A DNA stretch of 64,000 bases from positions 121,567,593-121,631,592 of the forward strand of contig NC_090378.1 in assembly GCF_036365525.1 (NCBI RefSeq), read 5' to 3'. The stretch's first letter is position 1; each line of letters begins with the position of its first letter. Positions 2,380-55,652 of this stretch are shown here, one piece after another. Under the pieces are notes generated by a model. The model saw only the letters and a program-made list of their open reading frames with translations, was not told the origin of the DNA and searched no databases. The stretch is from Heterodontus francisci (Eukaryota). The position numbers were made by a program, and so were the translations under genes.

Positions 2380-2765
2380 TGAGATAGATCTAGAGACAGA
2401 GAGAGAGAGAGAGCGAGCGTGTGGCAGAAACAGAGTAACAGGGGGAGAGAGAGAGAGAGAGAGACATAATGAGAAAAAACAGTGAGGGGGGATGGAATGT
2501 GAGAGAAACACAAAGAAGCAGAGACAGAGTGAAACACACAAAGAGCGACAAACAGGGAGAGAGAGAGATAGAAACACACACTCACCAAGACATAAACAGA
2601 GAAGCACACATAACGACAGAGACAAATAGATACATACAGAAAGCGAGAGAGAGAGAGACACACACTCACAGGTAAAGATACACAGAGAGACAAGCACACA
2701 GTGACAGTGAGAGACAGAGAGAGGGTGAGAGAATGAGTGAGTGACAGAGAGTAAGTGAAACAGAA
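2380..2765. repeat. GA/CA-rich low-complexity tract
   Basis: Degenerate (GA)n/(CA)n. Confidence 0.85.
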
Positions 2766-2777
2766 AGCAGAGGATAT

Positions 2778-3684
2778 AAAAACAAGAAATGCTTGAAATA
2801 CTCAGCAGTTCTGGCAGCATCTGTGGAGAAAGTAGCAGAGTCATTTCAGGTCAGTGACCCTGCAGAACGCGCAGAAATTAGAAATGTGAAAGGTTTTAAG
2901 CAAGTGAAGCGGGGATGCGGCAAGGGATAACAAAGGAGAAGGTGTAGATAGGACAAGGTCACAGAGAATAACCGACCAGAAGGTCATGGAACAAAGGCAT
3001 ACACTATGTTAATGGTGTGTTGAAAGACAAAGCATTAGTACAGATAGAATGTTAATGGACTGAAAACTGAACAGACACAAGTACAAACATGAAAAAAACA
3101 GTAGAAACAAACTAAAATAAAAACAAAAGAAAAGAAAAAATAACTAAAAATAAAAGTAAAATGGGGGGCCCGTCATGCTCTGAAATTATTGAACTCAATG
3201 TTCAGTCCGTAAGGCTGTAGTGTGCCAAATCGGTAAATGAGATGCTGTTCCTCGAGCTTGCGTTGATGTTCACTGGAACACTGCAGCAATCCCAGGACAG
3301 AGATGTGAGCATGAGAGCAGGGGAGAGTGTTGAAATGGCAAGCAACCGGAAGCTCGGGGTCCTGCTTTCAGACCGAGCAGAGGTGTTCCGCGAAGTGGTC
3401 ACCCAGCCTCCGTTTGATCTCCCCAGTGTAGAGGAGACCACATTATACTACATTGAAAGAAATACCAGTAAATCACTGCTTCACCTGAAAGGAGTGTTGG
3501 GGCCTGGGATAGTGAGGAAAGAGGAGGTAAAAGTGCAGGTATTACACCTCCTGCGTTTGCAGGGGAAGGTGCCATGGGAAGGGGACGAGGTGGTTGGGCT
3601 AATGGAGGAGTGGACCAGGGAATTGCGGAAGGAACGATCTTTTCAAAATACTGACAGAGGAAAGGAGGGGAAGATGTGTTTGGT
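2778..3684 (-). mobile_element. 5'-truncated Penelope-like retroelement (GIY-YIG endonuclease end plus 3' terminal repeat)
   Basis: - strand reads ..CGLLYTGEIKRRLGDHFAEHL..PVACHFN..RKLEEQHLIYRFGTLQPYGLNIEFNNF*. Flanked by direct repeat AGCAGAGGATAT (2766-2777 and 3689-3700; 15/16 match when extended). Confidence 0.88.
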
Positions 3685-3694
3685 AGAGAGCAGA

Positions 3695-3733
3695 GGATAT
3701 TGTACAGCACCTGCACTGGAAGCAGTCAGTGTG
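3695..3733 (+). promoter_or_regulatory. V(D)J recombination signal sequence, 23-bp spacer (J-RSS)
   Basis: Nonamer GGATATTGT (3695-3703; consensus GGTTTTTGT), exactly 23 nt of spacer (3704-3726), heptamer CAGTGTG (3727-3733; consensus CACTGTG) abutting the J coding sequence. A J with a 23-RSS is the kappa/sigma-type orientation. Confidence 0.92.
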
Positions 3734-3768
3734 GTTAACGTTCGGTAAAGGAACCAAGCTCAGACTGA
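3734..3768 (+). CDS. IGKJ: Immunoglobulin light-chain J segment (kappa-like), LTFGKGTKLRL
   Basis: FGxGTKL motif, preceded by the RSS and followed by a consensus donor A|GTAAGT (3769-3774); phase 1 matches the C exon acceptor. Confidence 0.95.
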
Positions 3769-4294
3769 GTAAGTAAACCCCAATCCTCTGTTATTAATCC
3801 TTTAAATACTGAAACTTTCTAAAACACAAATGCTGAATAGTGGAAGGTGTTAGTAAGGAGCTGCAGTCAATGAAATGGTTCATTGAAGAGCACTGTGTAT
3901 AACAGGGTGCCCAGCTGTATTTCTTTAGTTACATTCCCCCTTTAACCAGCAAGATATAAGTAACCAACTTTTACCGAGTGTGCAGAGGAGATCTGGACGT
4001 TTGCAGACTGTGGTCACATTCCTGCTCCATGGAGTGAAATCCCTCACTAGACTCCTGCCAGTCTCAGTGAGAGCTCTGGGTCTCTGTCACAGTCTCTGAT
4101 ATAACTGATCTCAGCACCAGCACAGGGAGATACCGAGGTCCCACCTCCCCCAGCTTTAACTCTGCTCTGTCCACTCCCTGCTTATCTCTTGTCAAAGTTC
4201 TGATGACAAACAGTGACAGCAGGGCTCCCAATCCAGTGGCTTCAGTGTCCCAGGGTTTTGGGGAGACTCTCAGTTGCTTTCTCTTTGGGTGAAG

Positions 4295-4510
4295 TTCAGG
4301 CAGATATTTATCTCTGAACCAACATCACTAAAAATGTTCATTTACCTCATCGGTGTTTGTGGGATCTTGCTGTGCACAAATTGTCTGCCACATTTCCGAC
4401 ATTCCAACAGTGACTGCTCTTTAAACAAGTCCTTCATTGTCTGTAAATGACTTTGGGAGGTCCTGAGGTGTGAAATACTCGATATAAATACAAGTCTTTC
4501 TTTTCTTTTT
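4295..4510 (+). mobile_element. Deu-domain SINE fragment (3' half)
   Basis: AACCAACATCACTAAAA..GGGATCTTGCTGTGCACAAATTG..AAATACAAGTCTTTC, similar to the copy at 4915-5300. Confidence 0.65.
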
Positions 4511-4914
4511 ATTAACCGGGAGCTCCCACAATACCCTGTTGATTAAAGCTGAACCCAGCAGAAAATCCACAGAAAACTGACTAATGTTTGTCTGATTTGT
4601 CTGTGTGTTTATTAGACATGACTGAGCAGATAGCAAGAGTTTCAGCAGCAACAAAGGTGTTACTCTAGTGCCCCTCCCACTTTCCCCATCGACTTACAAA
4701 ATACTTACAGGGAAAGGGCTCAGCACCTGCCATCGACTGGTTAAATGTCACCCCTCTAGACTACAGGTCTCCCGCAATCTGCTCTCCATCTCTCTCCTGA
4801 AGGCACTATCTCTGGCTGGGTCACAGCTCCACCCTCCCCAAGTGGCCTCATTCCTCCAAGTGTGAGCCGGGTGGTTGAGAATGGCAGGCTATTCGACTGT
4901 GAGGTTTTAGTGTT

Positions 4915-13756: not shown

Positions 13757-14085
13757 GCCAAGAGAAGTCTCAGCCCACACTGACCCTGCTGCCCCCCTCC
13801 CCGGAGGAGGTCAAGGCCAAGGGCACTGCCACCCTGGTGTGCCTTGCCAATCACTTCTATCCCGATGAAGTAGGGGTAGAGTGGAAGAAGGATGGTGTCG
13901 TCATTTCGGCCGGGGTTCAGACTAACAACTACCTGCGAGCTTCGGATAGCACCTACAGTGTCAGCAGCCTGCTGACCATCTCTGGCTCCGACTGGGAGTC
14001 CAACGCACGCTATTCCTGTGCCCTTACCCACAAGACCCTGTCCTGTCCCATCAGTAAGAGTGTCAGCAGATCAGAATGTGTGTAG
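13757..14085 (+). CDS. IGKC: Immunoglobulin light-chain constant exon, kappa-like (type III/NS4-like)
   Basis: Acceptor TTTTCTCTTTCAG|GC; (S)QEKSQPTLTLLPPSPEEVKAKGTATLVCLANHFYPDEVGVEWKKDG...STYSVSSLLTISGSDWESNARYSCALTHKTLSCPISKSVSRSECV*. C1-set Cys/Trp/Cys plus the penultimate H-L Cys; in frame with J. Confidence 0.96.
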
Positions 14086-25205: not shown

Positions 25206-26012
25206 AAAGAAGTCTGGAATCTGCTAGGACTAGTCATGTACTGTAGTCATTTCATTCCTGACCTCGTTACGCTATCTGGCCCCCATGCTATCTGTCAAAA
25301 GGGACAACCAATTGGAATGGACTAAATCACACAAACAGGCAGTACACCAGATCAAACAACGTCTGTCAACAAGTTGCACAAATGCCTATTTTGCCCCTGA
25401 GAAAAGGACCCAGCTCGATGTGGATGGCAGCCCGCTTGGCTTCGGTGCAGTTCTCATACAGAAAGACAAGACAGGTCACCCAGTAATCATTGTGATTGTA
25501 AATAGATCATTAACAGCCATAGAGCAATGTTATTCACAAAGAGAGAGAGAAGCTCTCTCAATCACATGGGGTATCTTACACTTTCATCTCTACTTATATG
25601 GAAGTGAGTTGAAAGAAATAACTATCAGAGACCACTAGTGAGCTAGTTCAACAATCCACACAGCAAAACACCCACTCAAATAGAACATTGGATATTCAAA
25701 CTACAAGAGTATGAGTTCCATGTTGAGTATCAGCCAGGCAAATTCAATCCAGCGGATTACCTTTCACAACATCCGCTGCCGACTGTCAGTCCTAGTAGTC
25801 GTGTGGAAAAGGTTGCTGAACAACATCTTAACTACGTAAGCATAAATGCAGTGCTAAAGTCGCTAAAAATAGCCAACAACAAAATCAGAATAAAATAAGA
25901 TGAGGCTTTGAAATTATGTATGAAGGCTATGGAATCTGAAAACTGGAAAACTGATCGAGAGAGCGTCTACAAAAGATATTCGCTCGCACACTACAAGGTC
26001 TTCACAATAACA

Positions 26013-26144
26013 TAAAAGCAAAATACTACAGATGCTGGAAATCTGAAATCAAAACAAGAAATGTTGGAAATACTCAGCAGGTCTGGCAGCATCTGTGGAG
26101 AGAGAAGCAGAGTTAACGTTTCAGGTCAGTGACCCTTCTTCAGG
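26013..26144 (-). mobile_element. Penelope terminal-repeat fragment carrying a hammerhead-ribozyme core
   Basis: Matches 2778-2860; - strand CTGAAGA-AGGGTCACTGACCT-GAAA-CGTTA at 26143-26114. Confidence 0.75.
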
Positions 26145-26896
26145 ACTAACCGTTACAACCACATCTAATCTTGTATTACACAACAACTGTATTGTCATTC
26201 CACACTCATTAAGGGAATGTGTTGTCAATAAAGCACATGAAGAACACCAGGGAATAGTCAATAGTAAACAACCCCTTAGGCAAATGGTTTGGGTTCCAGG
26301 AATGAACTGCATGGTAGAGATAAAATCAATCAGTGTTTACCATGTCAACTACCCACAATGTCAAATCTTCATGATCCTCTCGTGATGTCTGAACTACCTC
26401 CAGGACCAGGGATTGTGTCAGTGTTGATTTCACAGATTTACCCACAGGTGAACACCTGCTTGTTGTCACTGACGACTACAGCAGATTCCCAATCGTGGAA
26501 TTAGTTAAGTCAACTCCAACAAAAGCAGTGATTCCAAAGCTTGACCAGATCTTTACCTTGTTTGGAATCCCTCAAACAGTAAGAAGTGACAATGAACCCC
26601 CATTCAACAGCAATGAGTTCAGTAAATTCACAAACTACCTAGTGTTCACTCATAGGGAAATCACACCCCATTGGCCAAGAGCTAATGGAGAAGTCGAGAC
26701 ATTTATGTGAACCTTGAAAATAGTGATACGTACAGCTACAGCTGTGAACAAGTCATGGGAGCAAGAGTTATATCACTTTCTTCATAATTACAGAGTGACT
26801 CCAAACTCAACTACTGGAAAACCTCCAGTCACTCTCATCTTTACACATCCTCTGTGCACACGTCTTCCTCAGTTACCCTACGGAGATAATGATCAA

Positions 26897-27519
26897 TAAA
26901 AGCAAAATACTGCAGATGTTGGAAATCTGAAATAAAAACAAGAAATGTTGGAAATACTCAGCAGGTCTGACAGCATCTGAGGAGGGAGAAGCAGAGTTAA
27001 CGTTGTGAAAGGTTTTAAGCAAGTAATGAGGGGGTGGGGCAAGAGATAACAAAGGAGAAGGTGTAGATAGGACAAGGTCACAGAATAACTGACCAGAAGG
27101 TCATGGGGCAAAGGCAAACAATATGTTATTAGTTTAGTTTAGTGATACAGCACTGAAACAGGCCCTTCGGCCCACCGAGTCTGTGCCGACCATCAACCAC
27201 CCATTTATACTATTCCTACACTAATCCAATATTCCTACCACATCCCCACCTGTCCCTGTATTTTCCCTACCACCTACCTATACTCGGGGCAATTTCTAAT
27301 GGCCAATTTACCTATCAACCTGCAAGTCTTTGGCATGTGGGAGGAAACTGGAGCACCCGGAGGAAACCCACGCAGCCACAGGGAGAACTTGCAAACTCCA
27401 CACAGGCAGTACCCAGAATTGAACCCGGGTCGCTGGAGCTGTGAGGCTGCGGTGCTAACTACTGCGCCACTGTGCCGCCCTATTGGTGTGTTGAAAGACA
27501 AAGCATTCGTACAGACAGC
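26897..27519 (-). mobile_element. Penelope 3' fragment inserted in the Gypsy integrase
   Basis: Colinear with 2778-3045; perfect 10-bp TSD TAATGATCAA (26887-26896, 27520-27529). Confidence 0.88.
27131..27480 (-). mobile_element. Full-length HE1/V-SINE nested in the Penelope fragment
   Basis: A box TGGCGCAGTAG, B box GGTTCAATTC, V-core, (CTAAA)n tail; short flanking repeat TATT. Confidence 0.92.
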
Positions 27520-28414
27520 TAATGATCAACATATACACCAACACGATCGAGATCAGAAGTATAGAATGAAGGTAAATGCAGAGTGAAACATGAAACTTCG
27601 AGCTACACCATTAAAGCCAGGAGATAAAGTACTTGTGAAACGTGATGGTCATGTTGGAAAACAAACAACCCCTTATAACATCCAACCATTTGTTGTGACC
27701 AACACAAAAGGATCAATGATCACTGCTGAGCACGATTCACAAATTATCACAAGAAACGTGTCATTCTTCAAACACTGAAAACACCTCTTGTAAACATTGA
27801 ATCTGATTCCAGCATCGACACCTCCGATGAAGAACGTGAGTTAAATGAGACTTCACCTGATGTCAGACAATATCCTACTTGTGAGAGAAAAGGCCCACTA
27901 CACGTAGGTGACTAGATAACGAAGTGAACTATTTATGTTTAAGTTTATTCTTTACATTTTTGTAAACAATCCATTGAAACATGTCTCTCATTTACTAAGA
28001 AGGGGAGGAATGTAGTGTTGTCATGTTTTAAAATTCATTGTACATTTAATTAACTTGAAGCCACTGTAGAACACACTATACTAGCAAAGGGAAAGTGAAA
28101 GTAAAGCAGAATGAAGAAGAAGCCTTTGTGTTTAACAGCCTGCAGTCTCAGTCTCCCATCTCATACTAAACTCGGCTAAACCTCACTTAATTCCCGAGGA
28201 CATCACATGCAGGTGGCGGGAGAGTGGGCTGTAAACGATCGGGCAGTGGAAGGACTCGTCACCCTCCTGGCATCCTGAGGGCAGATGTAAACCAATGTAT
28301 TACTTTACCTTTTAATGTACAATCACATTCTCACCATGTAACTGTTATTTTATTTCTTTTCTATTCATGATCGTAGACCAGTTGTGGTGGAGTCCTGAGT
28401 GTGTGGAGCCTGTT

Positions 28415-52985: not shown

Positions 52986-53480
52986 TTTAATGATTCTTGA
53001 AGTGTTCATGCCCCTAATAATAGATTCCAGCATTTTCCCATGATCTGACACTTGAACATCTTAATTTGGGGGAAATTCTGCTCAAAGAGTTTGTCTGACA
53101 CTCCCATTTCTACATCTCTTGTCACAAATACTTTGAATGACTGCAGTGCAGTAGATGCTTTATCAGGAACAAACAGCTGCTCAGTCCAAATATGGCTGCC
53201 AAGGTCTATGAATTTGCATTGTCCCTATGGTCTGCATCTCAGGCCTTAAATCCCCACCACCCACCTTAACTGGCTACACGCAGGTGGTAGGTCTTGTGTG
53301 GTGCAAGATCCAGGGCCACATCAATACTGAAGTGTTATGTAACCTGCCCCTCACCAGAGAACCATGATGACACAGAAACTGCAGGGCTGTATAAAACACA
53401 GCAAATTGTTACAAACTGTGCACATGTGTCTGCAAGAGCAAAGAGGGAAGAGGTAAAGCCAAGTGCGTTAAAAACATCCA

Positions 53481-55652
53481 GTGAAGATCACTGATTCAAA
53501 AGAAATCCAAAAGAAGTCAACCAAACAAAATCTGATTTCAATCAGTGGGCTGTGGAATGAGTATAAAATGGACATCAAAGTAGATTTATTCACAACTCTC
53601 CTTAAAGAGATCGCTGAGAAAAGTGAAAATTCTCAGCAGAATATATCAAATACAATCCATCATGTAGAGGAGGGGATCATTTCAACTGAAGACCATGAGC
53701 GACAGAGAGCCATGCAGACCACCTTCGAGCTTCTGAAAGTTTACTTGCAGAAACTCAATGTCAGTAACCTTGCGTCTGGAAATATTATGGGGGCTCTAAT
53801 TGGACGATTGATGCTGCACTGTGCAGACAGTTCGCTACCTGTGTGACAGATGGCCCTGGTCTCTGTGTACACCATCCTGTCCATTCAGTTATAATATGAA
53901 GGTGCTGATCTGGATCAGCAACAGGAGCAGCCAGAGGATCTGAACACACTCAGAGAACAGTTAGACAACAATGACCTTTCAGTCCTCTTGCAAAAATACC
54001 ATCAGATTGCAAAGGTAATTTCCAAGAATTTTCCCCATAACCAGCTGTGCAACTTGCTCCTCATGGTCTTTAAAGGACTGTCTGACCAACACCCCAGCTG
54101 TTCCTTTGCAGCCGCTGTGCTCGTAAAAATCATCATTAAAGGTGAGGCAGTGATCCACGGGACCAAGTCTCAGAAATACTAGACATGCTGAGGGTTGAAC
54201 TGGAGTCAGTTCCTTATGAGGATTCAAAATGTTCTGTTCCATGTAGTTTCACCATTTTGTCCTGGCACAATATACTAGCAGTTGTGTCCCATCTCCTCAG
54301 CTCCCTGGACCCATTGGAGAAATTTGTCAGAGACGTGTGGAGATCAATGGCCAAAGACACAAATGTGCAGTCAGGACTATTAAGTAGCTGGTGTACACAC
54401 TTGAGAAAAGAACCTGCCCCATCAATGGAAACAGAAAACCCTATTCAACCGCTGTATCACTGGCTGCCATCTGCAGGTTGTCTGAGATTATCACTAAGCC
54501 TGTGTTGGCAGAGGTGCTGAATACATTATTCCCACTGATATTCAGTACCCTAATTATTTTGTTAACCAGCTGCGTTAATATTTCTCTGTTCGATTGTTCA
54601 GATACTGAATCGCAGCAGAGAGATTTCACAGCCCTATTTCAAACATCACCAAGTTGCGATCTGTATAAGAAGTGTGTACAGACACTAAAGGTCCTTCCAG
54701 GCCAAGCAACAAATGGAGGCGTCATTGAAAACATGAATAGAAATGGAGGATGGTGCCAAAATGATGAAGCTGAACCACTTCGACAAGGGGGTCGTTCTGC
54801 TGGCCACAGCAATGGCAGAACATGCTGGCTACAGTCTGCCTCATATCGTGAACCAACTGGCTTCTCACATCATTAGGCTCCAAGACTATCAGGCAGTTAA
54901 AGTAATCACCTCCTCGGAGAACTGCTGAAAGCTCCACTGCTTTCAGAGCTGTAGCTCACAGACACTGTGCTAAACAGTTTGATAAGGTATTTGCTGTATG
55001 TCTCTCCTGTTAGCCGGTTGTTGTGTGTCTGGGTCCGGAGAAATATTAACTTTGGAACTAAAAGACAGTCTTGGAGCGTGATGGACACAATGATTAGCCT
55101 GTTGGGGAATGAGCAGAACTCGGAGTTGCTAATGCATGTGGTGCTGTCGTACCTGAGTATTATCCAGTCAATGGCAAACACCATCCAGCTCTTTGTGGAT
55201 CCAAATCTTACCAGAATTCAGCCACTCTTTGGGGCAGAGTCTGAGAAAGTGCGGGTGGAAGTATTCAACGTGTTGGGGAACTTGACCAAGTGTGGAATTG
55301 GAGGGTCCACATCTTCCATCTCCCAGCAGGTCCATTCCAACCTGGTGCACTTGTTGTTGCACTCAGATGGAAAGAGTGAGGAGATCACCTGATCTTGCAG
55401 TTTAACACTGTGGATGATCTTCCCACTTATTGGATGTGTGAAGGGTTCTTGTTTAATTGAAAGATATCTAGAGAACCCCAACTGGAGTTACATGGACTTC
55501 CTCAGAAGCATCTCATGCCAGTTGGTTCAAGATTTCCCAATGGGTGAATTCCTATGCCATGGATTGTGAATCATTTTTCAACAATGACCAGGAGCAGCTC
55601 TGAGATCACGCAAAGGCCTTTTCAACTTTCCTCCTGAGGCAGCCAGCATGTG
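53481..55652 (+). pseudogene. MROH1: Intronless maestro HEAT-like repeat (MROH1-like) pseudogene, C-terminal half
   Basis: GALIGRLMLHCAD..QL*YEG..HQIAKVISKNFPHNQLCNLLLMVFKGLSD..AMAEHAGYSLPHIV..RIQPLFGAESEKVR..QVHSNLVHLLLH follow MROH1 motif order without introns; several stops and frameshifts. Confidence 0.82.

Follow-up and report, generated by a model that had tools for sequence, protein, structure and literature searches.

A copy of an abundant Penelope-like element lies at the outer edge of the signal (RSS) of a kappa J segment of Heterodontus francisci and very probably arrived there by the family's usual endonuclease-primed route, in AT-rich DNA, rather than through RAG. The insertion is real, was correctly described in the initial annotation and is ordinary. 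All positions given below, unless a contig is named, refer to the window, the whole stretch of 64,000 nt that was analysed (GCF_036365525.1, NC_090378.1:121,567,593-121,631,592, forward strand).

Insertion site and target-site duplication

The 12-mer AGCAGAGGATAT has just two occurrences in the window, starting at 2766 and 3689. Extension gives direct repeats of 16 bp that differ at one base (2762-2777, AGAAAGCAGAGGATAT; 3685-3700, AGAGAGCAGAGGATAT), and both copies are found where the initial annotation had placed them on either side of the Penelope copy (2766-2777 and 3689-3700, 15 of 16 bases when extended). The final six bases of the right repeat are positions 1-6, on the plus strand, of the nonamer GGATATTGT at 3695-3703; these coordinates agree with the earlier reading that one edge of the target-site duplication (TSD), GGATAT, falls within the nonamer. 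Downstream of the nonamer follow a 23-bp spacer (3704-3726), the heptamer CAGTGTG (3727-3733), the J segment (3734-3768) and a splice donor at 3769, and the right-hand copy indeed leaves a complete 23-RSS on the J. On the other side, the insertion site is directly adjoined by a GA-rich simple repeat (2391-2761; trinucleotide entropy of 4.36 vs 5.4 in random DNA) that is present 5' of the J RSS in the paralogs as well.

A search of the genome with the J region yielded 29 loci, namely the one in the window, 27 others on contig C8 and one on contig C2. The alignment of J-kappa upstream regions proposed in the initial annotation gives a uniform result: the insert is absent and the repeat is single in all 28 other loci, with the consensus ...AGAGCAGAGGATA(T/C)TGT. 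The empty-site allele is AGAGAGCAGAGGATATTGT in 20 of these loci, ACAGAGCAGAGGATATTGT in seven and ACAGAGCAGAGGATACTGT in the C2 copy. The left TSD copy (2762-2777, plus strand) shows one substitution compared with the common empty-site allele, and its final AT is also microhomology templated by the element; the same applies to the first AG of the right copy (3685-3700, plus strand). Family copies read ...CTGAAAT ahead of the 3' junction and AGTGGCATC past the 5' junction, and target and element overlap at the 3' junction in AT only, at the 5' junction in AG only. Because the family ends share only these 2 nt each with the target, the repeat is not element sequence, and the concern that it might belong to the Penelope consensus end can be set aside. 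The assignment of the two microhomologies sets the range of the TSD length, 12-16 bp.

Given the single repeat copy at all 28 empty loci, the 16-bp repeat at the J RSS is a true TSD. A chance match, a later duplication or an assembly artefact could be suspected from the mismatch and from the simple sequence on the left flank, but the empty sites, the element ends that adjoin both repeats exactly and the family-typical length leave next to no probability for such an explanation.

The Penelope-like element and its family

The insert (2778-3684, minus strand, 907 bp) is a 5'-truncated Penelope-like element with Neptune/Nematis-type motifs and a tail-less 3' end at 2778. Six-frame translation, tblastn and the motif table identify in it a decayed remnant of a C-terminal ORF with a GIY-YIG endonuclease (3176-3687, minus strand) that is interrupted by stops and frameshifts; tblastn of a family ORF against this remnant gives an E value of 1e-29. 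The GIY-YIG motif LY(I/T)GET-RRLGDRFAEH is present in the insert and in 24 relatives. A CX2-5CxxC linker upstream of GIY-YIG is found in 17 of the 25 frames, in the insert as CKRRRCNTC, a CX4CxxC linker at about 3540-3565, and CxxCGLLY is found in 15 of the 25 listed frames but is partly deleted from the insert. The Pfam GIY-YIG matches are weak (E 0.003-0.012, under the curated cut-off); RVT_1 is detected in all three longer family frames, also under the cut-off (E 3e-4 to 6e-3), whereas the truncated insert is devoid of RT. Judged by these motifs, the insert is an endonuclease-positive Penelope-like element of putative Neptune/Nematis type, as this type is characterized in the available part of the respective study (PMC8557442).

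The family is very large. A family 29-mer has 21,385 exact matches genome-wide (control, 0), and twenty 10-kb stretches at fixed, unselected positions (200 kb) contain eight copies, which extrapolates to perhaps 100,000-500,000. The best 29 of more than 10,000 candidate relatives are 79-87% identical to the insert, which has diverged by 6.7% at non-CpG positions from the majority of these 29. The family has two 3' ends, 37-39 bp apart, with a tail in 35 of 57 flanks and none in the other 22, matching the prediction of two initiation sites and an optional tail that is found in the accessible text on a related element (PMC11167929). Family TSDs are 12-17 bp long, with a mode of 14 and one of 21 bp, in a survey of 71 3' ends that produced 31 calls, from about 23 separate insertions other than the focal one, and in which TSDs shorter than 12 bp fell below the score cut. 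The focal junction itself, GGATATAAAAACAAGAAATG (GGATAT|AAAAACAAGAAATG), recurs at 116 places on many contigs (control, 0). All 20 fetched GGATAT junctions are tail-less; seven have a callable TSD of 13-17 bp, and none of these seven runs on into TGT or a nonamer. In many family copies (L034, L037, L044, L046, L059, L136, L138), the conserved 3' end is present on both sides within one TSD; such inverted pairs are already known among Penelope-like elements. The sequence CUGAAGA...GAAA, which we take to be the core motif of a hammerhead ribozyme, is visible in the copy at 26012 and lost from the focal copy; an Rfam scan of four loci for hammerheads returned no matches, and two pLTR pieces fold no better than shuffled sequences (z -0.8 and -0.6).

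The position of the focal TSD, which starts exactly where the GA-rich repeat ends, raises the question of whether this structure-prone edge, rather than the RSS, attracted the endonuclease. A microsatellite bias has been described for the Naiad and Chlamys elements and tentatively linked, in the portion of the study available, to the CX2-5CxxC linker that is present here too (PMC8557442). The family flanks as a whole, on the other hand, match random DNA in complexity (entropy of 5.39 vs 5.41) and are only slightly richer in AT (62% vs 56%). Only one of the 57 approaches the simplicity of the focal flank, which is thus unusual for the family, and a role of the GA-rich repeat appears quite improbable.

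Two further family copies lie within 25 kb in the focal cluster, and both are missing from the paralogs. One (26884-27529, minus strand) is tailed, carries a nested SINE-like insert and resides in an LTR-type element. The initial annotation had credited it with a clean 10-bp TSD (26887/27520); the repeat is present, but comparison with the empty paralogous site lengthens it to 13 bp with one substitution (26884-26896 and 27517-27529). The other copy (26012-26148, minus strand) is short and tailed, is absent from the matching site in two paralogs, and was accompanied by a small target deletion without a TSD. The LTR-type element, with an integrase remnant, spans 25.2-28.4 kb of the window and contains both Penelope-like copies. 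In five other cluster regions, which are satellite-rich and add up to 190 kb, only one family copy is present, so the local copy density varies widely. Elsewhere in the window, there are frames of Maestro HEAT-repeat proteins (53472-54517) and several minisatellites with periods of 45, 21-23, 36, 23 and 32 (20.3-25.2 kb and 42.6-47.1 kb).

The kappa cluster

The target is a kappa J 23-RSS (3695-3733, minus strand) that consists of the heptamer CACACTG, a 23-bp spacer and the nonamer ACAATATCC. Of the 27 further J copies on C8, 26 have an identical heptamer and nonamer; the spacer of the focal RSS has two private substitutions. The J segment (3734-3768, plus strand) encodes WLTFGKGTKLRL. The C exon (13757-14085, plus strand) has an open frame (Pfam C1-set, E 9e-23) and is 92-94% identical to 27 other C exons. 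Its best named protein match is a horn shark kappa chain (94%); among 29 protein matches, 24 are named kappa or kappa-like and three lambda-like or lambda-1-like. A sigma-type identity was considered for this exon and rejected, the named matches being kappa. The V exon, whose frame is open, lies 52.4 kb 5' of the window and is followed by the consensus 12-RSS CACAGTG-12-ACAAAAACC. With a V 12-RSS, a J 23-RSS, one C exon and kappa-type sequence, the locus has the make-up of a shark kappa (NS4/type III) cluster.

In the region of C8 between 115.6 and 124.8 Mb, V, J and C were each found 28 times. None of the V and J segments found is germline-joined, and an RSS is present on all of them. The 28 clusters are arranged in two blocks of opposite orientation, the first with 15 clusters on the minus strand and the second with 13 on the plus strand. 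Near-identical J regions are paired between the two blocks, an arrangement suggestive of a large inverted duplication or of conversion. The focal cluster has the longest terminal branch among the 28 J regions (0.025), its nearest paralog being 2.3% distant. The divergence of the insert exceeds this distance of the J flank, and its age is matched more closely by the C exon, in which 10-13 of 106 codons differ synonymously; we infer that conversion or constraint around the J explains the low distance of its flank. Compared with five paralogs, the C exon has seven non-synonymous and four synonymous private codon changes; among the seven amino acid replacements is S96C, which adds a cysteine near the C-terminus. 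No sequencing run is catalogued as RNA, but contigs from four runs of one sample, by our guess RNA, contain kappa J spliced to C, with a loose end at 13757. None of the listed contig pieces with 100% likeness covers the stretches with private bases of the focal cluster; as contigs drop rare variants and the animal may differ, this speaks neither for nor against expression of the cluster.

The V-J interval of the focal cluster measures 56 kb (C8:121515475-121571277; upstream of the window to window position ~120), and 52 kb of it is a 61-bp satellite in 855 copies that begins right after the V nonamer. The same satellite unit is met at the end of each of the 28 kappa V segments (loci L060-L069 and L098-L125), and V-J distances, by nearest same-strand pairing, range from 7 to 216 kb. 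The unit contains CACAGTT-23-ACACA(A/G)TCC, a few mismatches off a 23-RSS. The satellite-filled interval is likely of more interest than the Penelope insertion; a literature search of incomplete coverage found no paper on V-J spacing in these kappa clusters. Behind some TCR-like V segments (C34) lie near-consensus 23-RSSs in tandem, in arrays with a 62-63 bp unit (L178:1715-1940 and 4416-4580; L179:4660-5510; L180:8309-8536); the L179 array has 12 RSS calls over 13-14 units. The C2 copy of the kappa J (125.446 Mb; L029 / L097:6140-6360) is an orphan that retains about 200 bp of flank and an RSS that is degenerate (heptamer CAGCGTG); it is embedded in repeats, with no V in the 10 kb examined and without a C-exon match. 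The octamer consensus is ATTTGCAT; the three kappa V promoters checked (L124, L107, L123) have ATTTACAT in its place.

Probable mechanism of insertion

The likely course of events can be outlined from the junctions. The GIY-YIG endonuclease would have nicked the plus strand within the nonamer, at GGAT(AT)|TGT, and the freed 3' end would have primed reverse transcription from the internal, tail-less start of the family, aided by the 2-nt microhomology. A second nick, 12-16 bp leftward, would have followed, with the 2-nt AG microhomology closing the truncated 5' end. The minus-strand orientation of the element ORF places the priming 3' end on the plus strand, probably at 3698-3700, and the second nick was probably at 3684-3686. 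Because the TSD spans the outer edge of the nonamer, the copy on the J side retains the whole signal. The "rebuilt" RSS requires no special process, given that a TSD straddling the outer edge of any motif leaves one whole copy. The net outcome is a 0.9-kb insert that lies 6-10 bp beyond the RSS, within the DNA that would be deleted on joining of V to J. Signal-breaking insertions were likely purged, so a signal-sparing survivor is the kind that is expected to be seen.

The initial annotation had offered two causes, chance targeting of AT-rich DNA and germline accessibility or breakage of this RSS. The first fits the data; the second is at odds with the probable nick positions, the family-typical junction and the absence of copies from the other RSSs sampled. 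In principle, RAG active in the germline or an open chromatin state of the J RSS could have supplied or exposed the break used for priming, and germline-joined nurse shark kappa (NS4) genes have joints that, in the part of the report available, are RAG-like (PMC2193156); the TSD edge inside the nonamer could be taken in the same sense. RAG cleavage, however, occurs at the heptamer/coding border, a matter of established knowledge that the accessible text also conveys (PMC2193156). This border is here 3733/3734, and the probable nicks are 33-35 and 47-49 bp away. The first RAG nick on the J would furthermore be on the minus strand, opposite to the likely priming nick, and a staggered TSD of 12-16 bp is typical of the family and unlike a blunt or hairpin break. 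Together with the lack of germline joining in the C8 clusters and the RSS counts given below, these observations make a contribution of RAG breaks or of open chromatin very unlikely.

Frequency of family copies at recombination signals

Enrichment of Penelope insertions at RSSs, another proposal of the initial annotation, was examined on a sample and none was seen. No family copy is present at any of the 56 other kappa RSSs (28 V and 28 other J). Outside C8, the sample comprised 60 stretches of 10 kb round V-set matches, drawn from 150 scored of 2,384 candidates, with 43 family fragments. A copy edge lies within 300 bp of another Ig/TCR RSS in none of 110 strict calls, vs 6.8 expected for random positions in the same stretches, and within 500 bp in one, vs 9.6 expected. 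This depletion, which speaks against the involvement of RAG, is to be read as absence of strong enrichment and not as active avoidance, since a bias toward depletion arises from paralogy, from the coding exon that flanks one side and from the requirement that the RSS be intact. A looser caller gave 163 calls, with the nearest copy at 319 bp; some tandem RSSs were misfiled by it, so the 110 strict calls are quoted. A loose 12-RSS pattern (309 matches vs 135 in the control, satellites included) was too noisy and was not used.

Four genome-wide junction-plus-RSS patterns produced 0, 3, 7 and 0 matches and, at the seven loci inspected, no 12/23 RSS beside Ig coding sequence. These patterns cover one orientation, with the conserved 3' end facing a near-consensus RSS, and would miss the focal case; that the heptamer-side patterns detected no real RSS also counts against RAG. 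All ten matches were rejected, the grounds being a wrong spacer or heptamer orientation, a position within the element's own tail in one case, and in six cases descent from a single duplicated site with a 14-bp spacer. No Ig motifs were seen at the seven of the ten pattern-match loci that were inspected.

The focal case was chosen after the fact, and its chance occurrence was estimated from 4-8 copies per 100 kb and 14 RSS-sparing positions. The Poisson probability of at least one RSS-sparing insertion is 0.12-0.22 for 219 RSSs (roughly 0.1-0.25), 0.3-0.5 for an assumed 600 RSSs and 0.03-0.06 for the 56 kappa RSSs alone, the last being the count most favourable to RAG. About 0.2 such insertions would be expected at the other RSSs and none is seen, which excludes only an excess greater than ~15-fold. 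Since most paralogs are young, near-identical duplicates, the number of independent trials is smaller than these counts imply.

A variant in which RAG binds or opens receptor signals in shark germ cells without cutting, and in this way exposes the nonamer to the retroelement endonuclease, has only a very slight chance of being correct. If it were, the insert would record, as a fossil footprint, the binding of RAG in the germline, and RSSs repaired by TSDs would map RAG positions. Likewise, an enrichment of insertions at RSSs would have documented independently that RAG has access to these signals in the germline of sharks; depletion is what the sample shows instead. With insertion by the ordinary endonuclease-primed route, the event matters little as found, being one of the very many copies of the family, with the signal intact. 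It nevertheless offers a clean example of a functional motif spared by target-site duplication and also marks the lineage of the focal cluster. A literature search of incomplete coverage found no report of a Penelope insertion at an RSS.

Comparison with known systems

The element class, its TSDs, tail and AT preference have already been described, as far as the available parts of the sources go (PMC11167929; PMC8557442; PMC3846280). The family shares with the Neptune/Nematis elements, as presented in the accessible part of PMC8557442, the C-terminal GIY-YIG domain after the RT, the CxxC in the GIY-YIG core and the upstream CX4CxxC linker, as well as the optional tail (here 37-39 bp), the inverted-end copies and the TSDs. 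Unlike these elements, the focal copy is a decayed 0.9-kb 3' fragment, and its putative class is assigned by motifs (PMC8557442).

The green anole element PAc (Poseidon) similarly uses two starts of reverse transcription and has tailed and tail-less 3' ends, according to the part of PMC11167929 that was available. PAc cuts AT-rich DNA with a preference for an ATT motif, and the focal nick would, by analogy, fall in GATATT (PMC11167929). In contrast to the insert, PAc belongs to the Penelope/Poseidon clade, without the CX2-5CxxC linker in the account accessible to us, and initiates in vitro without target homology, whereas the focal insert shows 2-nt microhomology (PMC11167929).

Finally, the horn shark clusters resemble nurse shark NS4 kappa, as covered by the available text of PMC2193156, in the light-chain type, assigned by protein likeness, and in the multiple V-J-C clusters. 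In the germline-joined NS4 genes, the RSSs have been removed by excision at the heptamer border and the joints are of the hairpin type, whereas the focal RSS is intact and the breaks are at the nonamer end (PMC2193156). The two sharks also differ in V-J spacing, which spans 7-216 kb in the horn shark clusters vs ~0.5 kb in nurse shark NS4 (PMC2193156).
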